A DNA stretch of 64,000 nucleotides from a virus. Taxonomy: Duplodnaviria; Heunggongvirae; Uroviricota; Caudoviricetes; Thumleimavirales; Hafunaviridae. The position numbers were made by a program, and so were the translations under genes. The notes beneath the pieces were generated by a model, which saw only the letters and a list, made by a program, of their open reading frames with translations, did no database searches and was not told the DNA's origin. The DNA lies in the IMG/VR virus record IMGVR_UViG_2974793440_000001, positions 12,822 through 76,821 of that record. One strand, written 5' to 3'. This document shows, piece by piece, positions 5,862 to 43,272 of the stretch (positions within the stretch are counted from its first letter, which is position 1; the number at the start of each line of letters is the position of its first letter).

Positions 5862-7300
5862 ACTGTGAAGACGCCGCTGTGACGCTTGCTTTCCTCGATG
5901 AGAGCAACGACCTCGATAGGCCCATCGTGGAGATTCGGCCTCTCGAAATGGACTTCCAGCGGAACTACAACAAGTTCGACTTCGTTCGGGCCAAGTTCTC
6001 GAAGGGAGTGGCTGACCACATCGAGGGGGCTGTCAAAGCCGACGATGGGGAGCTTCACCGCCCCCGGCCTGTCGTTGTGAAGTTCGGTGGGGAGGCTATT
6101 CACCGGATGCTCTACCTCCCCGACGCGGTTTACTTCGGGAACCATAACGTCACGATTGAGCTACACGACTGTCAGAAGTACCTTGACCGTGGCGTGGTGG
6201 ACTACCAGCGGCAGAACGTCAGCCTCGAAGATGCGTACCGCTACGTGTTCAATCAGCGGGACACCTCGAACGGCGAGATGTTCTCCGGTATCGAGTTTGA
6301 CGTTCCCGGTTCGGCCTACGAGTACCTACACAGTACGTACAAGGACGGCCCGTGGTTCCTCGAATTGAAGAACCAGCGAACGTGGGACTTGATTCGGGAA
6401 GCCCGGAGCGACCAGACCGGAGCGTTCCAGCCGAAGCACCAGAACGACGTTATCCGCGACCTCGAACGCGAGAACGTTCACAACATCATCGACGGGCACT
6501 ACGCCCTCGACTTCAAGCAGGTCACGCCGTGGGAAGCTATCCTCGAAATGAACGAGAAGTTCGGCGTGACTACGTGGGTCGCCCCGGACGGGAAGTTTTG
6601 GGTCGGTAGCCGTCACGCGACGGGCGTTGACCACGTTGCGACCCCGGACGACTCCCGCGTCTGGAAGCTTCTCGACTACAACATCAGCCCGCCGCGCGAC
6701 CCGATTATGAAGGTCGTCGTTCGGGGGAAGATGATTCACGACCCGAACGAGAGTTGGGGCGAACAGCTCGGGGAGATTGTGAACATGAGCCGGGGGACGA
6801 AGGACTACCGGGTGGAGGGCGTGGCCGAACGGCCCGACCTTGACTTTGGGAGAATCCTCGAACCCGAAGACCTCGAAGTGGCGGCTGACGGCTTGGAGGA
6901 CGTTGCGAAGCGTCGGCTACTGAAAGAACAGCGGAATCAATGGAGTGGGAACCTCGAACTTCTCCCGTCCCACTCGGGTTCTGCGTGGACGGACATTCGG
7001 TTCGTTCAAATCGGAGACAACATCGTGACGGTTCCGCCGGAGGATACCGGCGGGGAGTGCGAGTCGAAAGTCCGGTTGGAGAAGTTTATGATTACCGGCG
7101 TTCAGCACAATATCACGGAAAACGGAGAGTGGACGTGTAGGCTGAATGTTATCCCGATAATGGACGGACAGCTTCACCCGGACAGGGTGAAGACCTACAC
7201 TCGGTACTTCGACCCGCACAAGAAGGAATACATCTCCGAGGACGCCTACGAAGCCGACAAGAAGGCTGACGAGGGGATTCAACTCTCCGACTTCATCTGA
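5858..7300 (+). CDS. tail protein, gpD-like (late control D / hub-associated) by position
   Basis: 480 aa, overlaps the preceding stop; P2-like order T-U-D. Confidence 0.35.
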   Translation: MNCEDAAVTLAFLDESNDLDRPIVEIRPLEMDFQRNYNKFDFVRAKFSKGVADHIEGAVKADDGELHRPRPVVVKFGGEAIHRMLYLPDAVYFGNHNVTIELHDCQKYLDRGVVDYQRQNVSLEDAYRYVFNQRDTSNGEMFSGIEFDVPGSAYEYLHSTYKDGPWFLELKNQRTWDLIREARSDQTGAFQPKHQNDVIRDLERENVHNIIDGHYALDFKQVTPWEAILEMNEKFGVTTWVAPDGKFWVGSRHATGVDHVATPDDSRVWKLLDYNISPPRDPIMKVVVRGKMIHDPNESWGEQLGEIVNMSRGTKDYRVEGVAERPDLDFGRILEPEDLEVAADGLEDVAKRRLLKEQRNQWSGNLELLPSHSGSAWTDIRFVQIGDNIVTVPPEDTGGECESKVRLEKFMITGVQHNITENGEWTCRLNVIPIMDGQLHPDRVKTYTRYFDPHKKEYISEDAYEADKKADEGIQLSDFI

Positions 7301-7302
7301 TT

Positions 7303-7737
7303 ATGATTCACGGAATAGCTACTTCTACGGATTTCAAGTCCGGTATTCTACTGGTTGACGTTCAGGTTGCGCGGGCGGGGGTAACTTACAAGAACGTACC
7401 TGTTCTCCATCAGTTCCCCGGACACATCCAGTCTATCACGGAAGGCTCCCGTGTTGTCCTCGAACAGACGGAGGACAATCTGTGGGTCGTTCTCGGCGTC
7501 CTCGAAACGGACGATGAGCTTCTGACTGAGAAGCCGGAAGCCTACGAGCAGGTGATGGCCTTCGATGATGGAACGGAGATTAGTGTCAAAGAAGCCGAAT
7601 CCGGCGGATACGACGTGAATATCAACGCATCGAGCGAGTTGAACATCAAGGCGACCGGGGACGTGACTGTTGAAACTGAGGGACACCTTCAGTTCAAGTC
7701 GTCCTCGGTGGACTTCGACACCTCAGGTAGTGCATGA
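7303..7737 (+). CDS. small baseplate spike/hub-like protein
   Basis: 144 aa, immediately upstream of a PAAR-like ORF. Confidence 0.3.
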   Translation: MIHGIATSTDFKSGILLVDVQVARAGVTYKNVPVLHQFPGHIQSITEGSRVVLEQTEDNLWVVLGVLETDDELLTEKPEAYEQVMAFDDGTEISVKEAESGGYDVNINASSELNIKATGDVTVETEGHLQFKSSSVDFDTSGSA

Positions 7738-8099
7738 GCAAGAAAATCGCTGTTCACGGAGCGACGTGTGAGGCTGACGGCCACCCTTCGGAGTGCCAAG
7801 CTACGGTGACGGGACAGACGAAGGATGCTGACGGCGATACGTCGGTGACTATCAACGGGGTTCCGCTCACCGACCACGGCGACTCGATGCACTTCCCCTC
7901 TCACGCTCACGCATATAGTGGCGACCCACCGGCTTGTACGAGCTATTCTTCCCATGACCTCGTTCCCGACGAGTCTCCCTCGTTCACGGTGAACGGTCGG
8001 CCCGTCGTTCGGGTCGGTGACTCCACGAGCGACCCCGGTGCGGGGACGGCTCAGGTGGTTGATAGTGGTGGGAACGGCGCTGTAACGCACACGGAATAG
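7734..8099 (+). CDS. PAAR-like spike-tip protein
   Basis: 121 aa; 'VHGATCEADGHP...INGVPLTDHGDSMH...VNGRPVVRVGDSTSDPGAG' resembles the repeated PAAR motifs (..NG.P..R.GD...). Confidence 0.45.
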   Translation: MSKKIAVHGATCEADGHPSECQATVTGQTKDADGDTSVTINGVPLTDHGDSMHFPSHAHAYSGDPPACTSYSSHDLVPDESPSFTVNGRPVVRVGDSTSDPGAGTAQVVDSGGNGAVTHTE

Positions 8100-8163
8100 C
8101 TCACATCATATATAAACCCTTTACCATTAATAGTAGTAGAGAACGCCCTTCTTCACCCCTCTC

Positions 8164-8490
8164 ATGCTGGATTTAGCCCTAAATAGTGACTTCTCTGTTT
8201 TTCTCAACGAGAACGGCGACCTCGGTACGGTGAGTGGGCGCGAGGAGTTCGAGCAGTCGGTTGTAATTCTAATGACCGAGCTAATGCGTAGCTCGACCAT
8301 CGGAGAGTTCGACCAATCTACGATTGAGCAGAAGCTCAAGCTCGAAGCAACTCGGGTCGCACGGAAACACGATTTCCTCTCGGAGATTTCGGGAATCGAC
8401 GTTTCGCCGCACAAGGAGAACCCTCACACATACGTTGTAAGTATCGACTACAAAACAGACCGAATTTTCGAGGAGAATATTAGCGGATGA
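8164..8490 (+). CDS. baseplate wedge protein, gpW/gp25-like
   Basis: 108 aa, 'NGDLGTVSGREEFEQSVVILMTEL..GE' resembles the GPW_gp25 family; AT-rich promoter-like region upstream (8100-8160). Confidence 0.5.
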   Translation: MLDLALNSDFSVFLNENGDLGTVSGREEFEQSVVILMTELMRSSTIGEFDQSTIEQKLKLEATRVARKHDFLSEISGIDVSPHKENPHTYVVSIDYKTDRIFEENISG

Positions 8491-9722
8491 CGATTTCCCA
8501 AGACGGCTCTTTTGACGGCGACACCGAGGAGGAAATCCTCGATGCGATGATTGCCGACGCGAAGCAGTATTGGTCAGAGGACATTAAGGAGTCTGACCTT
8601 GCTGTAATCAGGCAGTTCTACCGGCCTATCGCTCGGCGTCTCGCACAGGCACAGGACGACATTGGACTTGTCCTCGAATCCACTCAGATTGACAACGCCA
8701 GCGGCTCGGCTCTCAGTCTTCTAACAGCACTCATCGGAGTGAAGCGACAGCCTTCCGTCCGTGCTACGGGCGAGGTCACGTTCTCTCGTGAGAACATCGC
8801 TGAGCTTGATTACAACATCCCGGCGGGGACAAAGGTTCAGACGGCCTCGGAGCCGCCGACGCAGTTCGTCACTACGCAGGGCGCGACTATCGAGCAGGGG
8901 ACTTCGAGCGCGACCGCTCCGATTATCGCGGTGGAACCCGGCGCTGACGGGAACGTTGGCGCGAACGCGATTTCGGTTCTTCCGGTTCCGCTCGCGGGTA
9001 TCGAGACGGTCACGAACGCGAACGAGACGGTCGGTGGCGAGAACGAGGAAACCGACGACCAGCTTCGCAAGCGAGCGAAGGAGGAGTTGGCCGAGGGTTC
9101 GAGCGCGACCGCTCCGGCGCTGGTGAGCGCGGTACAGAACGTGGAGGGCGTCACGTCCGTCAGCATCCTCGTGAACGACACGAAGGACGACAACGGGCGA
9201 GGACACAACCTCCCGTCTAACTCCGGCGAGCTGGTCGTCACGGGCGGCACGGACGCGGATGTGGCGCAGGCTATCCTCGAAACGAAGGGGATGGATTCGA
9301 CTCTCGTGGCGGGAGTGAACGGTGTGGCCGTTCAGGGAGTCCCGGCGAATCTCCCGAACGGTCAGACGCTCCCGATTGACTTCTCGCGGGCGAACCCCGT
9401 GACCATCTACATCGAGGCAGATGTTCAGGTCGATGCCAACTACGAGAGTGACGAGGATGTGCTGAACAACATCGTCGAGTATGTCGGCGGGCAGACCGTC
9501 GAAGGCTTCGAGCGCGACGGCGAGCTTGGCGTGACGGACGACGTTCTGTACGGCGAGGTCGAATACCGGATTCGGGAAATCCCCGGCGTGTACGACGTTA
9601 CCTCCCTCAAGGTGGACAGGGTTAGTCCCCCGACCGGGACGAGCAACGTCTCGATTAGCGATATGGAGGAAGCGACGACCGACGCTCGGCAGGACATTAC
9701 GATTACGACGAGCGAGGTGTAG
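8487..9722 (+). CDS. baseplate J-like protein
   Basis: 411 aa, start overlaps the gpW-like stop; typical W-J-I order. Confidence 0.5.
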   Translation: MTISQDGSFDGDTEEEILDAMIADAKQYWSEDIKESDLAVIRQFYRPIARRLAQAQDDIGLVLESTQIDNASGSALSLLTALIGVKRQPSVRATGEVTFSRENIAELDYNIPAGTKVQTASEPPTQFVTTQGATIEQGTSSATAPIIAVEPGADGNVGANAISVLPVPLAGIETVTNANETVGGENEETDDQLRKRAKEELAEGSSATAPALVSAVQNVEGVTSVSILVNDTKDDNGRGHNLPSNSGELVVTGGTDADVAQAILETKGMDSTLVAGVNGVAVQGVPANLPNGQTLPIDFSRANPVTIYIEADVQVDANYESDEDVLNNIVEYVGGQTVEGFERDGELGVTDDVLYGEVEYRIREIPGVYDVTSLKVDRVSPPTGTSNVSISDMEEATTDARQDITITTSEV

Positions 9723-18225: not shown

Positions 18226-18840
18226 ATGAGCGGTGACTCAGAAATAGAATCCTTACCCGATATCGAGGTGGCGAATATCGTTGCGTCGGGAAAACTAAAC
18301 CTCGAATTAGACTTAGCGGCGGTGGCCGAAGACCTCCGAGAACTGGATATAATTGAGGACGTGGAACACAGCCGACGGCAGGGGAATCGGCTTCTAATCC
18401 ATTTTAGAGAGGGAGAGGCGCTTGGTATTCTCGCCCCAACTGGTGTCTACGTCTTCACCGGGGTTGATACCCACGAGGAGATACACAGCGCCAAGGAACA
18501 ACTCTTTAGCGCCCTCGCCTCATTAGGAATTATCTCTGGTGTAGATGTGGACGAGTCCGAAGTAGTCGATGAATTTCAGGTTCAGAACGTCGTTTGTACC
18601 GCCGAGTTGAGTGACCACCTGAATCTAAATCTTAATGCGCTCGCCATCGGGCTGGGACTTGAAAACACCGAATATGAACCTGAACAGTTCCCCGGTCTAA
18701 TTTTCCGACCGAGTAGTAGCAGTTGCACGATACTCATATTTGCGTCTGGGAAAGTCGTAATTACGGGCGTCAGAGAGGCAGATACGGCCCAAACCGAGTT
18801 TGTCGAACTCCGCGAGAAATTGGAGTCTCTTCTGGGTTAG
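18226..18840 (+). CDS. tbp: TATA-box-binding protein homologue, virus-encoded
   Basis: Start reassigned to the internal ATG at 18226 (MSGDSEIESLPDIEVANIVASGKLNLELDL...); second repeat 'LNLNALAIGLGLENTEYEPEQFPGLIFR...ILIFASGKVVITG' is near-identical to the haloarchaeal TBP consensus; first repeat is divergent. Confidence 0.85.
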   Translation: MSGDSEIESLPDIEVANIVASGKLNLELDLAAVAEDLRELDIIEDVEHSRRQGNRLLIHFREGEALGILAPTGVYVFTGVDTHEEIHSAKEQLFSALASLGIISGVDVDESEVVDEFQVQNVVCTAELSDHLNLNLNALAIGLGLENTEYEPEQFPGLIFRPSSSSCTILIFASGKVVITGVREADTAQTEFVELREKLESLLG

Positions 18841-19251: not shown

Positions 19252-20586
19252 ATGTCTGACGAGATGGGCGATATCTCCTTCAGAGCGAACAAGCGTCTGC
19301 CGATTCACTCGTGGTTCGGGTATGTGGCTGGCTACGACGCTAAGTTCGTTCGGAGTGTTATCGAAGAATACTGCGACGAGCCTGACGGGGATTACACACC
19401 TACTGTCTTTGACCCTTATTGTGGTTCTGGAACGACGGTTGTGGAAGCGATAGACTCAGGCCGAGACGGAATCGGGACTGAAATCAACCCGTTTATGGCC
19501 TTCGTCGCTCGGGCGAAGACCGACTGGCACACCTACCCGAAGGATGTTCGGACGGGTGCGCGTGAGTTCCTAAACGACGTGAAGCCGCAGGTTCTCTCTG
19601 AGTTCCCGAACGCAACTCTCGATACCTTCTCCGGTCAGGGCGCTGTCGAGGACGTTCGCATTAAGGCAAAATCGGAGGTTCCCGAGTTAGCGAACATCGA
19701 GAACTGGTACACCGACTCTGTCCTTGAGCAACTTCGGATTCTCAAGGGCAACATTATGGAAATCGAAACAGAGGGACTTCGGATGCTGGGTCTCATCTCC
19801 TTTGCTTCCATCCTCGTGGACGTATCTAACGGTGGCTACGACCCATCTCTGGGCTACCGAAGAGACAGCGACGGTAACATCATCGAGAACGAAGCAAACG
19901 TCGCCAAGGCGTTCGAGGAGAAACTGATGAACGTCGTGGAAGACGTTGAGGAGAAGGTACTCAACCGGGATGATTCCAACTCCTTCGGGGATGCCCTGAT
20001 AATGAACTCCGACGGCGAGGAACACCCAGCTCTCCAAGACGAGTGCGTGGACTTGCTTGTAACGTCGCCGCCCTACGCGAACAATATGAACTACATCCGG
20101 CAAACCCGGCCCCATCTCTACTGGCTTGACTACTGGGCCGACCGTTCCCGTCGGAAGTTCGAGGATAACATGATGGGTTCGTATTGGCAGATTGTTCGCC
20201 GGGAAGAGGTCGAGATGAAGTATCCGACTGAGACGCTGGAATCGGTCACCGACGAGATTCGGAAACAGGAACCCGAGCGTGAAGAACTCGGTGGGCCGGG
20301 ATGGGCACGATACGTAAACCGCTACTTCAACGACCTTGGGAATGGGTTTGAGCAACAGTACCGGCTCCTCAAACCAGACTCCCACGCGGTGTATGTCGTC
20401 GGGAACAGCGTCATCAAGGACGTGAACGTTCCTGTCGGTGAAATCATCGCGGAGATGATTGAGGAACACTTCGACTTTGAGGTAGTCGGGTCACCCGTTC
20501 ACTCGTCCAATACCCGTGTCTCTTCGTCGCTTCGGACAGAAGACCTGACCGACGTTGTCGTAACTCTCTACAAGCCCGAACAATGA
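19252..20586 (+). CDS. amino-methyltransferase (DNA N6-adenine/N4-cytosine type)
   Basis: 444 aa; AdoMet motif I 'DPYCGSGTTVVEA', motif IV 'LLVTSPPYANN' (SPPY); lower GC than surrounding genes. Confidence 0.8.
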   Translation: MSDEMGDISFRANKRLPIHSWFGYVAGYDAKFVRSVIEEYCDEPDGDYTPTVFDPYCGSGTTVVEAIDSGRDGIGTEINPFMAFVARAKTDWHTYPKDVRTGAREFLNDVKPQVLSEFPNATLDTFSGQGAVEDVRIKAKSEVPELANIENWYTDSVLEQLRILKGNIMEIETEGLRMLGLISFASILVDVSNGGYDPSLGYRRDSDGNIIENEANVAKAFEEKLMNVVEDVEEKVLNRDDSNSFGDALIMNSDGEEHPALQDECVDLLVTSPPYANNMNYIRQTRPHLYWLDYWADRSRRKFEDNMMGSYWQIVRREEVEMKYPTETLESVTDEIRKQEPEREELGGPGWARYVNRYFNDLGNGFEQQYRLLKPDSHAVYVVGNSVIKDVNVPVGEIIAEMIEEHFDFEVVGSPVHSSNTRVSSSLRTEDLTDVVVTLYKPEQ

Positions 20587-20801
20587 ATCCAAAATTCCAG
20601 TCCGTGATTCGATGCCCGGAAACGGATTGTCACGGCGATATTGAAATCACAGAACGGGCCGAAGAACACGCGGGTCAAATCGTGAAAGGCACGATGGAGT
20701 GCCAATCCTGCGGGAAGGAGTACCGTATCCGCGACGGCTTCCCGATACTACTACCTGAATCGCTGGACGACGAAGCAGAGGACTTAGGCGAAGTCAGTTA
20801 G
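20583..20801 (+). CDS. Trm112-like zinc-ribbon protein (methyltransferase partner family)
   Basis: 72 aa; 'RCPETDCHGD...ECQSCGKEYRIRDGFPILLPESLDDE' matches the Trm112/DUF343 signature (Cx2C...Cx2C..YPIrDGIPvLL); ATGA overlap with the MTase stop. Confidence 0.55.
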   Translation: MNPKFQSVIRCPETDCHGDIEITERAEEHAGQIVKGTMECQSCGKEYRIRDGFPILLPESLDDEAEDLGEVS

Positions 20802-21515
20802 TTCCCCGTCTTCGGCCCCGTCAACCTCCTCTTCTGTCACAGACAGGCTCTTCACGTTTTCACGCCGCCACTCAGCGTCTACTTTTGGTTGCACTTCTTC
20901 TTCCCAAACGTTCGGCTCTGTATCGCGGCGCGGGAGGTCTCGCTTCTCGACCCAGCCACGCCCCGGATGAAGGGTGTCCCACACGGAGCGTTCCTGATTC
21001 GCTCTTCCCTTTCCGGGGTCGTGGTCACCGAAACCGTCGATGTACCGATTCCACCACGGCTTGTAGTACGAAATGAGGGTCTGTTCACAGTACCGAATCC
21101 AGATGGAACTGGTAATCAGGTACTTGACCCTGAAGTTGTCTATGTCCAGATTCTCGGCCTGCTCGATGCTCTTTCGGTGTTCGAGAAGTCGTTTGTAAAT
21201 TCCACGCCCGGTAGAGGATTCCAAGTGCGCTCCCCCGGTACGCGAGCCGGATGGCACGGCTTTGCCTATGTAAATCGGGAAGTCGTACTCCCACTTGTCG
21301 TTCGAGACCGGCTCGTAGTTCTCGTAGTCACCGAAGTAATAAAGGCCGTAAACACCACAGCCGTCGAAGGGGTTGTAGGGTTCAGGAAGTTCCTCGCCGT
21401 CGTGTTCCTCAAATTCTCGGATAATCGTTTTGTTTAGTTCTCGTTGGGAAATACCGAGGTCATCCAAAGGATTCCAAGCAGATACTATCTGGTCATCCGA
21501 CATTGGATGGGGCAA
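20784..21515 (-). CDS. GIY-YIG family nuclease, candidate restriction endonuclease (Eco29kI-like architecture)
   Basis: 243 aa; 'GVYGLYYFGDYENYEP...PIYIGKA' GIY...YIG motif with downstream R and E residues; convergent with and overlapping the MTase/Trm112 gene pair. Confidence 0.5.
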   Translation of the reverse strand: MPHPMSDDQIVSAWNPLDDLGISQRELNKTIIREFEEHDGEELPEPYNPFDGCGVYGLYYFGDYENYEPVSNDKWEYDFPIYIGKAVPSGSRTGGAHLESSTGRGIYKRLLEHRKSIEQAENLDIDNFRVKYLITSSIWIRYCEQTLISYYKPWWNRYIDGFGDHDPGKGRANQERSVWDTLHPGRGWVEKRDLPRRDTEPNVWEEEVQPKVDAEWRRENVKSLSVTEEEVDGAEDGELTDFA

Positions 21516-22164: not shown

Positions 22165-22388
22165 ATAAAGAGTCACGCACCGGGGGTTTATAAAACGGGG
22201 GTTGGTAGGGGGTTCTTCATTTCCCAATATGAGTTATGGATAGAAAGTGGTACACGCACGGCATCCGGGGCTATACCCCCTGTTTATTTATAAGCAGAGT
22301 TGGTAGTAGAGTGTAGAGAAGCACGCCAAGTGGTGTGAACCCGGCAAGGAGTGCCGGAAGCTTAGCCACTCCCCGCCGGAGGCGAGCG

Positions 22389-22435
22389 CGTCCTTGGTAA
22401 GGACGAGAGCGCGGGTTCAAATCCCGCCTCAGGCT
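22389..22435 (+). other. attP-like site: 3' portion (anticodon arm to 3' end) of a tRNA-Thr(GGU) gene, no 5' half
   Basis: Anticodon arm CGTCC-TTGGTAA-GGACG, T arm GCGGG-TTCAAAT-CCCGC, acceptor 3' strand CTCAGGC; no matching 5' acceptor or D arm upstream; lies immediately 5' of the integrase gene. Confidence 0.6.
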
Positions 22436-22618: not shown

Positions 22619-23812
22619 ATGAACCGCGACGACCCCCTCGACCAGATGGAAATGAGCGCGGCATCCGAGGATATACCACCCGCGCCCAAACCCATCGAGT
22701 TCGGCTTCCCACTCGTGAGCCAACGGTCGCGCGAAGACCTCGAAGCGTTCGGCCTCAATATGGTTCAGGACTACCACGATTTCAAAGAGGAAGTCCTGAC
22801 GTGGCTCGGCAACTACGGGAAGAACCCCGACAAGCACGAGGGACTGGCTCGAACCACGCTTGAGAGTACCCACTACAAGCTCGAAACCGTCTTCCGCTGG
22901 CTATGGAAATACGAGGGCCAATACACTACCAAGTTCACACCCGAACACGCAGATAAGTTCATCTCGCTGTTGAATCAAGCCGACTCGATGATTGACAGCA
23001 CGGTGCTTCACCACGCGAAGGATATTCGCCGGTACTTCCGCTACTGTAACCACGTTCAGGGGAAGGACTACGATTGGGAACCCGACCTCGAACTCTCTCA
23101 GTCAAACGGCGACGAGCGAGAGTACCTACGTCGCGCCGCGTTTGAGCCGCTGTATCAATCCGCGCTTCAACACTCGTCGGTCAAGAGCTACTACTCCTGT
23201 ACCCCGGAGGAACGACAGGAGTTGAAGTCCTACGTCTCTCAGCGGCTTCAAGTCCCCAAGTCGAAGGTCGGGGCGGAGGAGTTCAAAAAAGCAAACTCGT
23301 GGAAGTACCCATCTATGATTGCGGCTACGCTGGACACCGGGCTTCGACCCATCGAGGTCGGACGCGCCAAGGTGTCTTGGGTGAACCTCCAAGATAACGA
23401 GCTGAACATCCCGAAGGACGAGTCCACGAAAAACGAGGGCCATTGGAACTGCGCGATACAGAAGCGCACGGCGAAGGCGCTCGAACGTTGGATAGACGAG
23501 CGGGCGACGATGGAGAAGTACGACGGTCGGGACGAGCTGTGGCTCACGCAGAAAGCCCGCCCCTACAACTCCGACTCGTGTAACGGCCTGCTTGACCGAA
23601 TCATCGAGTCGGGGAACGTCCCGATTCCCGAGAACCAGAAGAACAAAATCTCGTGGTACAGCATCCGCCACGGAGTCGCAACCTATTGGGCGAACCACGT
23701 TGGCCCGCACCACGCAAAGGAACAACTCCGCCACAAGAGCGTGACGACGACGATGAAGTACCTCCACTCGGACTCGGACACCCGAGGGAGCGCGGTCGAA
23801 CAAATCTGGTAG
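22619..23812 (+). CDS. tyrosine recombinase / integrase
   Basis: Start reassigned to ATG 22619 (the ORF-track start at 22394 is a TTG that reads through the tRNA fragment); C-terminal catalytic region '...WYSIRHGVATYWANHVGPHHAKEQLRHKSVTTTMKYLH' (R..HxxR...Y). Confidence 0.8.
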   Translation: MNRDDPLDQMEMSAASEDIPPAPKPIEFGFPLVSQRSREDLEAFGLNMVQDYHDFKEEVLTWLGNYGKNPDKHEGLARTTLESTHYKLETVFRWLWKYEGQYTTKFTPEHADKFISLLNQADSMIDSTVLHHAKDIRRYFRYCNHVQGKDYDWEPDLELSQSNGDEREYLRRAAFEPLYQSALQHSSVKSYYSCTPEERQELKSYVSQRLQVPKSKVGAEEFKKANSWKYPSMIAATLDTGLRPIEVGRAKVSWVNLQDNELNIPKDESTKNEGHWNCAIQKRTAKALERWIDERATMEKYDGRDELWLTQKARPYNSDSCNGLLDRIIESGNVPIPENQKNKISWYSIRHGVATYWANHVGPHHAKEQLRHKSVTTTMKYLHSDSDTRGSAVEQIW

Positions 23813-23877
23813 CCTGCGGTATATTCCTCTTTTTGACACCCGCAAAACTGATGTGTTGAGGTTTATACCTTTGAAGT

Positions 23878-23988
23878 ATGAGCGGAGACGATAGAGAGCC
23901 GTTTAAGAAATACAAGACCTGCTTAGAATCCGGTTGCGACAATCAGGTTGGCAAGGAAGACGATTACTGCCCTCTACATAGAGAATAA
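23878..23988 (+). CDS. mini zinc-finger protein 1 of a five-gene tandem paralogue array (36 aa)
   Basis: MSGDDREPFKKYKTCLESGCDNQVGKEDDYCPLHRE; Cx4C...Hx2-3C..H pattern; not in the ORF track. Confidence 0.5.
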   Translation: MSGDDREPFKKYKTCLESGCDNQVGKEDDYCPLHRE

Positions 23989-24098
23989 TGTCGGAAGATG
24001 GAAACCGACGAGAGTTACAAAAAGCGTGTAGAGAAGATGGCTGTGGTAGGCACGTTGGTCGAGAGCATGATTACTGTTTGAAACACCGTGAGGACTAA
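23988..24098 (+). CDS. mini zinc-finger protein 2 (36 aa)
   Basis: MSEDGNRRELQKACREDGCGRHVGREHDYCLKHRED; TAATG overlap with gene 1. Confidence 0.5.
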   Translation: MSEDGNRRELQKACREDGCGRHVGREHDYCLKHRED

Positions 24099-24109
24099 TC
24101 TGGTCAACT

Positions 24110-24226
24110 ATGTCTGACGATAAAGGAAACCCGAATATCGCCGCGAACGTCAAAGTGTGCCTCAAAGACGGCTGTAAAGCCAGCATTGGGCGAGAACACA
24201 AATTCTGTCCGAAGCATCGAGGGTGA
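24110..24226 (+). CDS. mini zinc-finger protein 3 (38 aa)
   Basis: MSDDKGNPNIAANVKVCLKDGCKASIGREHKFCPKHRG. Confidence 0.5.
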   Translation: MSDDKGNPNIAANVKVCLKDGCKASIGREHKFCPKHRG

Positions 24227-24228
24227 AT

Positions 24229-24342
24229 ATGTCTGAAGACGACCCCCTTGGAATAGACCAAAAGCTCAGTCTATGCGCTAAATCGGGGTGCGATACCCCG
24301 ATTGGGCGAGAACACGAATTTTGTCCACAGCATCGTGAGTGA
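24229..24342 (+). CDS. mini zinc-finger protein 4 (37 aa)
   Basis: MSEDDPLGIDQKLSLCAKSGCDTPIGREHEFCPQHRE. Confidence 0.5.
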   Translation: MSEDDPLGIDQKLSLCAKSGCDTPIGREHEFCPQHRE

Positions 24343-24344
24343 TT

Positions 24345-24455
24345 ATGTCTGACGACAAATTTGAAACTGATGCGTTACAGAAGACCTGTGCTGAATCGGG
24401 ATGTAAAAGCGCAGTAGGACGAGAACACGACTACTGCTTTGAACATCGGGAATAG
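24345..24455 (+). CDS. mini zinc-finger protein 5 (36 aa)
   Basis: MSDDKFETDALQKTCAESGCKSAVGREHDYCFEHRE. Confidence 0.5.
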   Translation: MSDDKFETDALQKTCAESGCKSAVGREHDYCFEHRE

Positions 24456-24459
24456 TTAG

Positions 24460-25035
24460 ATGATTTCCATAGGTGGGGTATATCTCGTTCTACTTGGCAT
24501 TTTCATATTCGTACCCACCGTCCAGATATTGATTAATCCAGTATCTATCAGCGAGGCTCCTTCATCTAAGGATTCAATGTCTGTGGTGGATAGGACAGCA
24601 TCCGAGTCGATTGCCCTGTTTGCTATTGTTTTAGTTATAATTCAATTTGTATTAGAGGATACTGAGTTGAGCTACTATCAGGAACTCACAGTTGGCATCT
24701 TGACCCTCTGTGCTGGTTTCTTGATGCTCACGTTCATTTTAGAACTCTTTAGCGATGTTCGAGTGGTTCTGTTTCACCTACAAATCACCGCTCTCAGATA
24801 TTCGGGTCTGCTCCTGTTCTCTGGACTGTTTTTCCTCCTCCAATCATACCAATTGAACCCGACCATCCAGTACCTATTCGCTGGATTTGTCCTCATCTCT
24901 TGGGGCGCTTGGATATTCCACGAACTGAAGTATCTATTCAGAATCCAGCTTCGAGAGTGGAATAGTAGAGGTTTAGAGCGAGGTAATTGGTTTCGTAAGG
25001 TGATTCGTCAAAAGGTTCCTTTTGTGCCTGACTGA
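24460..25035 (+). CDS. polytopic membrane protein
   Basis: 191 aa, about 5-6 hydrophobic helices; lower GC. Confidence 0.5.
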   Translation: MISIGGVYLVLLGIFIFVPTVQILINPVSISEAPSSKDSMSVVDRTASESIALFAIVLVIIQFVLEDTELSYYQELTVGILTLCAGFLMLTFILELFSDVRVVLFHLQITALRYSGLLLFSGLFFLLQSYQLNPTIQYLFAGFVLISWGAWIFHELKYLFRIQLREWNSRGLERGNWFRKVIRQKVPFVPD

Positions 25036-25039
25036 TTAC

Positions 25040-25564
25040 TTATAATTCATCAACCGAGCGCATTCCGCGCTCGTTCAGTCGGTATTCCTTCTTGCGACCG
25101 TCTTCATCGTGTGGCTGTTTCTCCACTACGTCGCGCTCCGATAGTTCCCATAGAATTTGACTCACATCGTCCGGGTCTATCTCGGAGTCCTCGGGGAGTT
25201 TCGATTTGATTTCATTCGTTGTGTGCCACTCATTCCCATTATTCTCATAGAGGAATTTGGCAAGTCGTCGCGTCCGTGAGCCTTCCTCGAATGAAACGAG
25301 GTCGGGGTCGTCCCCTTCGTCTTCACCACTTCGACGGGGGATTTCCTCTCCGGTGATGTATTCAGTCAAGTCTATCGGAGACTCAGCCTCAATAGTCACC
25401 TCGATGTTCTCGATGGAATCACCGAATCCAGCTTCCTCGATGAACTGATTAAACGCGCGAAGCCCCTGCTCTCCCGAAAGTTGGAGTGTCATTACTCCAT
25501 CCGGTTCATCAGACGACATATTCTGACTCTTGATTTGGCGTACTGAAAAACACCCGGCAATCAC
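25040..25564 (-). CDS. acidic protein with C-terminal winged-helix-like domain
   Basis: 174 aa; downstream of rtcB on the same strand. Confidence 0.4.
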   Translation of the reverse strand: MIAGCFSVRQIKSQNMSSDEPDGVMTLQLSGEQGLRAFNQFIEEAGFGDSIENIEVTIEAESPIDLTEYITGEEIPRRSGEDEGDDPDLVSFEEGSRTRRLAKFLYENNGNEWHTTNEIKSKLPEDSEIDPDDVSQILWELSERDVVEKQPHDEDGRKKEYRLNERGMRSVDEL

Positions 25565-25623: not shown

Positions 25624-26988
25624 CTACTTCTTGAAGTTCATTACGGGCTTCAGTCGGTCAACGACCATCGCCGTGGGGCCGAGGTGTTCCTCGATTAGCT
25701 CCGGGGACTTGTACGCCTGCGGAACTTCGTCGCCGGGGACGACCGCCGAGTACGTCCCGTTGTCGTACATCCGCTTCCGCGTAGCGTCGGCGTCAAACTC
25801 GGAGCGTGCCCATCCACGAGAACCAAGTCGCCCCGCGCCGTGGGGAGCCGAGTAGTTGTAGTCGGGGTTCCCGCGTCCCTGACAGAGTAGGGTTCCGTCC
25901 TCCATATTCATCGGGATGGCGAACAGCTCGCCGTCCTGAGCGCGGGTGGAGCCTTTGCGAATCATCATATCCTCGAAGTCCACGTAGTTGTGCGGGGAGT
26001 CGAGGAACTTGGTAATCGACGCATCGAGGGTTTCGGCCACCTCCTGAACCATCAGAAGACGATTGAAGCTCGCGTAGGTCTGAGTGAGCATCATATCGTA
26101 GTAGTAGCCGTAGGCTTCGCGTCCTTCGAGGTAATCGAGGTCTTTGTTCCGGTTCGCGTCGGGGGTGTAGGACTCAATCTCGGAGCCGATGCGCTCGATT
26201 TCCTTGCCGTCGTTGTAGAGACGAATCTTCTCCCAATCCGGGGAGCCGTCGCGGTTCGTGTAGTGCTTCAACCGCTCACCCATCTCGCCCCACTTCACGT
26301 CGGCGTCACGGTGTTCGGTCGCCTTCTCCTGCCAGTACGCCGCGACCTTCTGCCCGAGGTTACGGGAGCCGGAGTGAACGACCACCCACAGGTCGCCGGA
26401 CAGCTCGGACTCAGCCAGCTCGATGAAGTGATTACCGGAGCCGAGCGTTCCGAGCGAGCGAAGCGCGTACCGCCTTCCCGCCCCGACTCGGGTACACATC
26501 TTCTCGAAGTAATCCGGTCGGAACATCCCCTCGTCGCGGCTCTCGTAGTCGAAGTCCATCGCGTCGTAGAAGTGGAGTAGCTTCTCGTTCGCCTTCCACC
26601 ACGGGAACGACCACTCAAGTTCGACCTTCGGCTCTTTGTGAACGCGACCCGTTCCCATCGGAATCCGGTCGCGCACCTCGCTGTTCACCTCTCGGAAGTC
26701 GTCTATGTCGGAGGGATGGTCGGCTTTCGACACATCGAGGCGGGCCGCCGTCATCCCGCACCCAATGTCCCCGCCGACCGTCTTCGGAATCACGCGGTCA
26801 GTCAGCGGCATTGAGAACCCCACAATACAGGCAGGCCCGAGGCCTCCGTGACAGTCCGGCATAAACTTCACCGGATTCTGGAACGCCTCGTGGTCAACCA
26901 TCTCCTTGATTTCTTCTCGGAGTCCGTCTTCCACTTCTTTCTCTGGTAGATGTATCTCTGCTGTCGTACTGTCTCCTTCTACAATCAT
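25624..26988 (-). CDS. rtcB: RtcB-type RNA 3'-phosphate ligase
   Basis: 454 aa; metal/GTP-binding signature residues: 'MPDCHGGLG', 'GSGNHFIEL', 'VVVHSGSRNLG', 'SPHNYVDFE', 'SAPHGAGR'. Confidence 0.9.
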   Translation of the reverse strand: MIVEGDSTTAEIHLPEKEVEDGLREEIKEMVDHEAFQNPVKFMPDCHGGLGPACIVGFSMPLTDRVIPKTVGGDIGCGMTAARLDVSKADHPSDIDDFREVNSEVRDRIPMGTGRVHKEPKVELEWSFPWWKANEKLLHFYDAMDFDYESRDEGMFRPDYFEKMCTRVGAGRRYALRSLGTLGSGNHFIELAESELSGDLWVVVHSGSRNLGQKVAAYWQEKATEHRDADVKWGEMGERLKHYTNRDGSPDWEKIRLYNDGKEIERIGSEIESYTPDANRNKDLDYLEGREAYGYYYDMMLTQTYASFNRLLMVQEVAETLDASITKFLDSPHNYVDFEDMMIRKGSTRAQDGELFAIPMNMEDGTLLCQGRGNPDYNYSAPHGAGRLGSRGWARSEFDADATRKRMYDNGTYSAVVPGDEVPQAYKSPELIEEHLGPTAMVVDRLKPVMNFKK

Positions 26989-29507: not shown

Positions 29508-29557
29508 TCTAATAGACGGTATCTAATGACTTAAAGACTCCTATGTGAGTCTTTAGG
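29502..29557 (-). promoter_or_regulatory. canonical promoter/leader element copy upstream of the 29295..29507 gene
   Basis: CCTCACTCTAATAGACGG...GACTTAAAGACTCC...GAGTCTTTAGG. Confidence 0.4.
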
Positions 29558-29981
29558 CAATAGAAACGAGTTGACCTCTCTCGTTCAGCGTTCGCGTTTC
29601 GTAGTGATGTTTCGCGTGTTCAGCGTGGCCGAGAAGTTCGATGTTCTCCACTCGGTTGTCCAGCTTCATCGAGTTCTTGTGGTGAACATCATTCTCTACC
29701 ACGGCGTCGTAACCGTACTCGGCAACGGCGAGAAGCCGATGATGGAGGCACGAGTAGGTCTTTCCGTCGATGTTGACGGTGAGCTGTTCGTATCCATCGG
29801 AACGTTCCGTGACGGCGACGTTGTGCTTCCGTCCGGTTCTCTCGATACCGAATTTCTCCATCCAGTATCGAATCGTCTCCTTGGAACAGCCGAGGTCTGC
29901 CGCGACCTTTCGGCAGGAGCGGTGTGTCGAATACTTTTCTCTAAGCGTTTCCTCGTCTTGCCACGGTCTTTCTCGGGACAT
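29553..29981 (-). CDS. HNH endonuclease with N-terminal HTH domain
   Basis: 142 aa; 'NDVHHKNSMKLDNRVENIELLGHAEHAKHH' HNH motif; N-terminal 'RPWQDEETLREKY...LGCSKETIRYWMEKFG' HTH shared with ORF 50637..51062. Confidence 0.7.
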   Translation of the reverse strand: MSRERPWQDEETLREKYSTHRSCRKVAADLGCSKETIRYWMEKFGIERTGRKHNVAVTERSDGYEQLTVNIDGKTYSCLHHRLLAVAEYGYDAVVENDVHHKNSMKLDNRVENIELLGHAEHAKHHYETRTLNERGQLVSIA

Positions 29982-43117: not shown

Positions 43118-43199
43118 TTGTTGAACTTAGGTTTCTCTGGTTCTGGTTTTCAGTCGGTTCAGCACGAGCTACGACATTGGATTCTCGCCGTAGCAAAAG

Positions 43200-43272
43200 C
43201 GCCGAGGACAGGACTCGAACCTGTGGCTACCTGATTAACAGTCAGGCGCTCTACCAACTGAGCTACCTCGGC
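43200..43272 (-). tRNA. tRNA-Asn (anticodon GUU)
   Basis: Minus-strand sequence GCCGAGGTAGCTCAGTTGGTAGAGCGCCTGACTGTTAATCAGGTAGCCACAGGTTCGAGTCCTGTCCTCGGCG folds as a cloverleaf; anticodon loop CTGTTAA; no encoded CCA; canonical promoter element at 43300-43338 upstream. Confidence 0.8.

Follow-up and report, generated by a model that had tools for sequence, protein, structure and literature searches.

We examined a stretch of viral DNA of 64,000 nucleotides (nt; record IMGVR_UViG_2974793440_000001, here called the window), in which five very short open reading frames (ORFs) with a finger-like arrangement of Cys and His residues follow one another directly after an integrase gene. The region matches Haloarcula virus HJTV-2 (MZ334513.1 / NC_062755.1; Hafunaviridae, Haloferacalesvirus) at 100% identity, and window positions are obtained by subtracting 12821 from the position in the HJTV-2 record. 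Both the ORFs and the deposited annotation delimit the five micro-genes on the plus strand as gp52 (23878..23988; 36 amino acids (aa), MSGDDREPFKKYKTCLESGCDNQVGKEDDYCPLHRE), gp53 (23988..24098; 36 aa, MSEDGNRRELQKACREDGCGRHVGREHDYCLKHRED), gp54 (24110..24226; 38 aa, MSDDKGNPNIAANVKVCLKDGCKASIGREHKFCPKHRG), gp55 (24229..24342; 37 aa, MSEDDPLGIDQKLSLCAKSGCDTPIGREHEFCPQHRE) and gp56 (24345..24455; 36 aa, MSDDKFETDALQKTCAESGCKSAVGREHDYCFEHRE). As all five are already annotated, every one as 'hypothetical protein', the genes themselves are not newly discovered; zinc or Zn fingers are mentioned nowhere in the HJTV-2 genome paper.

Copy 1 starts 66 nt past the integrase stop codon. The junctions are, in order, a TAATG with 1-nt overlap between gp52 and gp53, an 11-nt spacer, TGAatATG and TGAttATG; number, strand, length and junctions of the ORFs are all as described in the original prediction, which had been made from the sequence alone. 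A Shine-Dalgarno-like GGGTGA overlaps the stop of the gene preceding gp55. The five ORFs are in differing reading frames and hence represent separate cistrons; a read-through polyprotein is ruled out, as the five copies share no continuous frame. Only 4 nt past the stop of copy 5 begins gp57 (24460..25035, plus strand), which encodes a hydrophobic, five-helix membrane protein of 191 aa. The segment is bordered on the left by the tyrosine integrase gene gp51 (22619..23812, plus strand; Pfam Phage_integrase at E = 8e-17 and deposited annotation) and on the right by gp58 (25040..25564, minus strand), which codes for a winged helix-turn-helix (wHTH) protein and is convergent with gp57.

The integrase stop codon is separated from the copy 1 start by a conserved non-coding spacer of 65 nt (23813..23877, plus strand). 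It is mostly unchanged across HJTV-2, the related virus HRTV-13 and the loci L025, L007, L009 and L027 (L numbers denote the individual loci), with the consensus TTTGACACCCGCAAAACTGATGTATTGAGGTTTAyAsCTTTGAwGTATG and a TTTAyA box ~12 nt ahead of the copy 1 ATG. In the comparisons in which the spacer stays conserved, the adjacent genes are almost saturated at synonymous sites. Because the spacer is so much better conserved than these sites, its conservation suggests that it serves the cassette as promoter or 5' leader, a recombination joint being a third candidate role.

The micro-genes are coding and under purifying selection

Codon-level conservation had been named in the original prediction as the property that would separate genes from a non-coding repeat. 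It was found, and the array therefore consists of genes. Among the 11 differences in 564 nt between the arrays of HJTV-2 and HRTV-13, 9 are synonymous and 2 non-synonymous. The ratio of non-synonymous to synonymous substitution rates (dN/dS, or omega), calculated by the Nei-Gojobori method over the five concatenated genes, is 0.13 for HJTV-2 and L007 (dS 0.92), 0.12 for HJTV-2 and L009 and 0.15 for L007 and L009. Comparison with cellular arrays gave values of 0.10-0.15 at dS ~0.9-1.2, and orthologous arrays range from 0.05 to 0.20. N-terminal tails and Cys/His cores are both constrained, with omega ~0.09-0.21 in most pairs and values of up to 0.38 in the pair L007-L020. Frames, start codons and junctions are kept from locus to locus.

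That the array is a non-coding repeat or a series of chance ORFs could be argued from ORF lengths below the usual cut-offs and from a word-indexed protein search, which returned zero matches for the five copies concatenated. The substitution pattern has already refuted this explanation, to which we assign next to no probability. Translated in six frames, the 64-kb window moreover contains the motif C-x4-C-x10-C-x2-H five times, always within the array, compared to a mean of 0.06 in shuffled sequence, and frame and Cys-Cys-Cys-His (CCCH) pattern are kept in 67 unique homologues. A tandem repeat at the DNA level was rejected, as the copies are too diverged and share just one 56-nt pair at 86% identity. 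A known RNA was likewise ruled out: Rfam finds nothing within the array, its sole match being the upstream tRNA.

Finger signature, predicted ligands and fold

Eleven alignment columns are invariant in all five copies (M1, S2, D4, C15, G19, C20, G25, E27, C31, H34, R35). The 67 unique family peptides were collected by the exact spacing C-x4-C-x10-C-x2-H, and over 38 aligned members M1, C15, C20, G25, C31 and H34 are invariant and R26 and R35 nearly so. The four Cys/His positions in finger-like spacing, C15, C20, C31 and H34, are thus unchanged in 38/38 aligned sequences. Members are 34-41 aa long and start with an acidic N-terminal tail that is specific to each paralogue and unlike the tails of its neighbors, which agrees with the divergent N-terminal halves noticed at the outset. 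The His of 'GREH', in contrast, is swapped for D, R, Q, Y, E, G or F among members and is not conserved. The likely ligand set is therefore CCCH, and the peptides are predicted to bind zinc. Of the four to five ligands first proposed, four remain, the fifth being this variable His. The proposed start MS(D/E)D fits all copies except copy 1, which reads MSGD, and the core (V/I)G-R-E-H-x-(Y/F)-C is likewise departed from in copy 1, which has GKEDDYC.

The AlphaFold2 (AF2) model of the finger is a tiny beta-hairpin with a predicted local distance difference test score (pLDDT) of 67. Its nearest neighbors in the PDB (Foldseek) are all mini zinc fingers, none of them significant; those of the A20/AN1/RanBP2 type (FUS-ZnF, A20 ZF7, AN1) were listed only at E > 4, and Pfam gave no zf-A20 or zf-AN1 match. 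Searches of Pfam and NCBIfam yielded sub-threshold noise only (CxC6, zf-TRM13_CCCH, EsV_1_7_cys), and a PDB sequence search nothing meaningful.

Among known haloarchaeal proteins the C(P)XCG proteins of Haloferax volcanii (HVO_0758, HVO_2753) and Halobacterium Brz come closest in kind. Like the fingers, these are one-domain zinc-finger proteins of <70 aa, cytoplasmic and of often unknown or regulatory function. With 36-38 aa the five copies fall within the size limit of the C(P)XCG micro-proteins (70 aa or fewer). A CPXCG or CXXCG pair, however, is present in 0/5 copies, and the separation from the Haloferax micro-proteins already made in the original prediction therefore holds: instead of two C(P)XCG knuckles, the fingers are of the CCCH type with C-x4-C and C-x2-H. 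They further differ, from the C(P)XCG proteins and Brz alike, in their organization in tandem arrays of several paralogues, in their location on mobile elements and in their obligate linkage to a protein with five transmembrane helices, and their sequences are unrelated to all Pfam and NCBIfam models.

Distribution of the family and age of the paralogues

In the phage collection the array was otherwise found in three viruses only, HRTV-24, HRTV-13 and HRTV-21. Further relatives were sought by a degenerate-pattern scan of GTDB genomes and metagenomes and by an exhaustive HMMER search of 1.84 billion representative proteins. Arrays were found on haloarchaeal chromosomes, where a search had been suggested from the start, as well as on one plasmid and on metagenomic contigs. 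The family is narrowly distributed, with only 17 matches in the exhaustive protein search and zero relatives in a pattern scan of IMG/VR. Two weak pattern matches, L012 from a metagenome-assembled genome of Victivallaceae and L034, were set aside, as they contain neither the finger motif nor a gp57 homologue. In cellular and metagenomic loci the finger genes (34-41 codons) are often uncalled, which leaves seemingly 'empty' gaps upstream of gp57 homologues.

Copy number varies among the 21 distinct arrays: five copies in 8, four in 3, three in 5, two in 4 and one in a single array, whose contig ends 273 nt upstream. By nearest-neighbor analysis, copies 1-5 of HJTV-2 pair in order with copies 1-5 of L007 (Halorarius halobius plasmid unnamed2) and L009. 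Orthologues of gp52 are copy 1 of L007, L009, L025 and L013. The second copies of L007, L009 and L013 and the first copy of L020 (Haloferax sulfurifontis) are orthologous to gp53. For gp54 and gp55 orthologues are found in L007, L009 and L020, at 74-79% and 70-84% identity, respectively. The most conserved type is gp56, which shares 92% identity with copy 5 of both L007 and L009, and this (E/A)LQKTC...YCFEHRE type, adjoining the membrane protein gene, is the last copy in most arrays. Shorter arrays can be read in the same register: L020 has copies 2-5, and the three copies of L013 are counterparts of copies 1, 2 and 5.

To judge from these sequence comparisons the array is not a recent amplification. 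A virus-specific five-fold amplification for dosage (the original prediction had put forward dosage or diversification) is not supported, since the paralogues are old and each has a positional orthologue in cellular and metagenomic arrays. The N-terminal tails differ among neighbors, yet are kept among orthologues, so that the copies must be regarded as functionally differentiated and not as maintained for dosage. Signs of local decay or remodelling are seen in some arrays from cells or metagenomes. In L009 (5111-5236) the stop of copy 2 is lost and its product, 41 aa long, extends into copy 3, copy 4 of L026 (2849-2956) is truncated just past the His ligand, and L030 (170-390) has four copies compared to five in its relatives, one of them without ATG start.

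HNH_3 endonucleases carry related N-terminal fingers

The finger showed a consistent relationship only to the N-terminal segment of HNH endonucleases. Positions 17-46 of the profile phrog_144 are matched by 5/5 copies of the window and by 28/38 family members. In the exhaustive HMMER search the protein P0017 was matched at E = 1.8e-4 (whole library). Its two N-terminal fingers have the very same spacing and precede HNH_3 and HTH_3 domains. Alignment of the family profile to P0017 with hhalign gave a probability of 93% at E = 2.5e-7. When the N-terminus of P0017 was used as query, the word-indexed protein search returned zero candidates. The HNH_3 N-terminal fingers of phrog_144 and P0017 share with the micro-proteins the arrangement C-x4-C-x10-C-x2-H and the xGC and IG(K/R)E elements. 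The micro-genes differ from these endonucleases in that they have no HNH catalytic domain: there is no Pfam HNH match, and the ORFs end two or three residues past the finger's His ligand. Each micro-finger is furthermore a gene of its own with an acidic N-terminal tail, and the micro-fingers are always coupled to a membrane protein gene. From the matches to phrog_144 and P0017 we infer that the micro-proteins are stand-alone, nuclease-less versions of the HNH_3 N-terminal finger.

HJTV-2 itself encodes an HNH_3 endonuclease, gp66 (window 29553-29981, minus strand), which carries an N-terminal HTH instead of the C-x4-C-x10-C-x2-H finger; the micro-fingers are therefore not fragments of gp66. 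Two other loci have HNH elements in the vicinity. A neighbor of the two-finger cassette in L014 (49-414, minus strand) matches Pfam HNH_repeat (PF18780, a homing-endonuclease-associated repeat), and in L010 a protein with HHH and HNH (7718-9130) is encoded ~2 kb downstream of the cassette. Both links may be coincidental.

The membrane protein gp57 is the obligate partner of the fingers

A gp57 homologue is located directly downstream of the fingers in 21/21 distinct arrays, with a gap of 0-21 nt or an overlap wherever both ends are defined. Conversely, every gp57 homologue that we examined has finger ORFs upstream, down to 37-38% identity with HJTV-2 gp57. gp57 is thus the obligate partner of the finger array. 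Its dS and dN values are the same as those of the fingers (omega 0.13-0.15), and its family is small (22 clusters). Because the cistrons are tightly spaced or overlapping, gp52-gp56 are probably co-translated with gp57 in fixed proportion.

No match to gp57 was found in Pfam, PHROG or PADLOC. Its AF2 model (pLDDT 83.9, predicted template modelling score 0.79) shows five long helices, with a short amphipathic one at the C-terminus. By the positive-inside rule, a cytoplasmic location is predicted for the conserved loop (26-50) and for the basic tail at the C-terminal end. A fold search of BFVD with gp57 gave nothing significant. The small oligomeric cation channels Orai (calcium release-activated calcium channel, CRAC) and WeiTsing are neighbors in fold only, at just 9-11% identity, and gp57 has five helices, not four.

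Tandem paralogous short ORFs adjoining the gene of a multi-pass membrane protein would also be expected if the fingers were precursors of secreted or modified peptides, of the halocin type or the type of ribosomally synthesized and post-translationally modified peptides (RiPPs), with gp57 as immunity or export protein. Microhalocins are 36-38 aa long, a size similar to that of the fingers. The fingers, however, are highly charged and hydrophilic and by eye show neither a signal peptide nor a Tat motif, and a modifying enzyme or ABC exporter was seen in no locus. Conservation lies in the Cys/His core and variation in the N-terminus, which is opposite to the usual leader/core pattern of RiPP precursors. 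We consider peptide precursors very improbable.

The fingers and gp57 form a mobile cassette in an integrase-proximal slot

Fingers and gp57 together are poor in G+C (43-47%) compared to their flanks (51-69%) in 6/7 loci tested, with 57% for the virus as a whole; in L017 cassette and flanks are alike at ~34-38%. The cassette is mobile and patchily distributed. It is present in 4 related Hafunaviridae, and sister viruses lack it at the same integrase/wHTH junction. The viral slot, i.e. the gap between the integrase and the wHTH gene, is without any gene in HRTV-15 and contains a 48-aa ORF in HSTV-3. A 286-aa ORF occupies it in HJTV-3 (gp46, L004 2403-3263) and HRTV-16 (gp43, L039 2201-3058), and HJTV-3 gp46, the one of the two that was scanned, matches the PADLOC candidate defence family PDC-S05 at 8e-18 and weakly a PLD-like nuclease domain. 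The wHTH gene gp58 occurs in sister viruses with or without the cassette. In the five-copy clade (L007-L009, L026-L029) nothing but the 3' end of an integrase gene remains upstream of the cassette; full integrases are found in L025 and L038.

Genes of conflict systems are found next to several cassettes. On the Halorarius plasmid (L007) a TIR protein (6305-7129, minus strand; Pfam TIR_2 4e-16, PADLOC PDC-S66 1e-34, ThsB-like) is encoded convergently and immediately downstream. The two-finger cassette of L017 (882-10111), on a contig of only ~34% G+C, is embedded in a defence island of SIR2 (PDC-S65 at 6e-191), SLFN-AlbA_2 and type I HsdR/HsdM restriction-modification genes. In L022 the cassette lies beside MazE, an integrase fragment and tRNA-Pro, and in HJTV-2 the genes for Eco29kI and an N4-cytosine methyltransferase are located just upstream. 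Defence-type neighbors occur in L007, L017 and the viral hotspot and ordinary neighbors in L015 and L020. The integrase-proximal slot has the appearance of a hotspot for conflict genes carried as cargo.

Two observations on single loci may be added. A fragment of an N6 DNA methylase gene is present upstream of the cassette in L007, and the gp57-like protein of L017 has 370 aa, its extra C-terminal half being without Pfam or PADLOC match.

The position of the array between integrase and wHTH gene could also point to independent nucleic-acid-binding regulators, similar to Brz or to recombination directionality factors, which would tune transcription or the integrase, with gp57 merely co-transcribed. 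The kinship to fingers of DNA-targeting HNH_3 endonucleases, the conserved K/R residues beside the ligands and the existence of small zinc-finger regulators in haloarchaea (PMC2253796) speak for such a role. The array is absent, however, from sister viruses with a closely related integrase, such as HRTV-15 (96% DNA identity in this region), for which reason an Xis-like role was rejected. Most cellular loci have an integrase fragment or none, yet fingers and gp57 remain intact there under purifying selection, and mere co-transcription leaves the linkage to gp57 in 21/21 arrays across deep divergence unexplained. Independent regulators thus appear unlikely, if still credible.

A further alternative is a role in anti-defence, in which, following the decoy or inhibitor idea of the original prediction, the nuclease-less fingers would act as decoys that mask the targets of HNH endonucleases or block a host factor, with one target per paralogue. 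Such a role would account for the homology to HNH_3 fingers in proteins without catalytic domain, for the presence of several diverged paralogues, all of them with a conserved tail of their own, and for the location of the cassette in a variable region with restriction-modification genes. Tandem small ORFs are also typical of anti-defence loci. The acr-aca layout of small ORFs followed by an HTH regulator within one operon is not found at the locus: gp58 is on the opposite strand, convergent and present with or without the cassette, and the operon has no Aca-type regulator. In addition, the invariant membrane partner is left unexplained, the cassettes of chromosomal islets adjoin defence rather than anti-defence genes, and they are kept there without an intact integrase (in the flanks retrieved), wHTH gene or RtcB homologue nearby. 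We rate decoys as rather doubtful.

Further features of the window

Just upstream of gp50 and the integrase gene, a tRNA-Thr(GGT) of 83 nt is annotated (22353-22435, plus strand). It was not called by ARAGORN and reaches 37 bits against a threshold of 29 with the Rfam tRNA model. Its extra length suggests an intron or insertion, and the tRNA region may mark attP. On the other side of the cassette follows a gene for the tRNA-splicing ligase RtcB (25624-26988, minus strand). ARAGORN detected another tRNA of the virus, tRNA-Asn(GTT), at 43199-43272 (minus strand). According to the deposited annotation the virus has its own TATA-box-binding protein (18226-18840, plus strand) and, just upstream of the tRNA and integrase genes, a restriction-modification pair (19252-21503; N4-cytosine methyltransferase, Trm112-like protein and Eco29kI endonuclease).

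A possible two-part conflict module

The reading that we favor, tentatively and at slightly less than an even chance, is that gp52-gp57 form a mobile, AT-rich accessory operon, travelling between haloarchaeal viruses and islands of cellular genomes, in which a panel of diverged fingers and a membrane protein together make up a two-part conflict module for superinfection exclusion or defence. The regulator, decoy and peptide alternatives fit less well, mainly because they leave the invariant membrane partner unexplained and because the cassette persists without an intact integrase or neighboring viral genes. In the conflict module that we propose, fingers and gp57 would interact physically: the cytoplasmic fingers would dock on the conserved cytoplasmic loop or the basic C-terminal helix of gp57 and act as its sensing or regulatory subunits, with gp57 as putative membrane effector. 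The module would serve its carrier element in virus-virus or virus-host conflict, not virion production or integration. In a more specific and less probable version, the cassette would be a hitherto unrecognized archaeal immunity or exclusion system, in which the nuclease-less fingers sense invading nucleic acid or proteins and gate an oligomeric, Orai-like gp57 pore, thereby aborting or excluding the infection; this we regard as conceivable but improbable.

Several observations weigh against a conflict module. A search of PADLOC-DB v2 with copies 2 and 5, gp57, its 370-aa variant from L017 and gp58 yielded zero matches. L015 and L020 are small islets among metabolic and housekeeping genes, which weakens the guilt by association, and the zinc-finger model is of moderate confidence. 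Hafunaviridae isolates are moreover described as lytic, and a role in lysogenic conversion is therefore uncertain for HJTV-2 itself.

Superinfection exclusion (Sie) and prophage defence genes carried as cargo beside an integrase are well known, for example lactococcal Sie2009, Ltp of Streptococcus thermophilus and the prophage-mediated defence genes of mycobacteriophages. The cassette resembles such cargo in being accessory, AT-rich, patchy in distribution, proximal to the integrase and equipped with a membrane protein, and in its slot other defence-type genes can take its place, such as the PDC-S05 homologue in HJTV-3 and perhaps the ORF of similar size in HRTV-16. In contrast to Sie-type cargo it has no sequence or structural similarity to known Sie or defence proteins, includes a multi-gene zinc-finger part and resides in archaeal hosts.

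Significance

The gene annotations were already known, whereas the family, its CCCH signature, the HNH-finger origin, the positional paralogy and the obligate membrane partner appear to be undescribed. The original prediction was correct in what it observed and in part of its interpretation; the partner gp57 and the relationship to HNH_3 had escaped it. For genome annotation, the family shows that micro-ORFs upstream of gp57 homologues are often missed by gene callers. Little is understood of the zinc-finger micro-proteins of archaea, a class to which a new family with a different ligand pattern and a traceable origin from an HNH endonuclease finger is added here. Its fixed genomic partner provides a concrete experimental handle, which is rare among micro-proteins. 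There is a modest chance that the cassette represents a new kind of system for defence or exclusion in archaea, and if fingers and membrane protein do exclude or defend jointly, they would constitute a new architecture in archaeal immunity.

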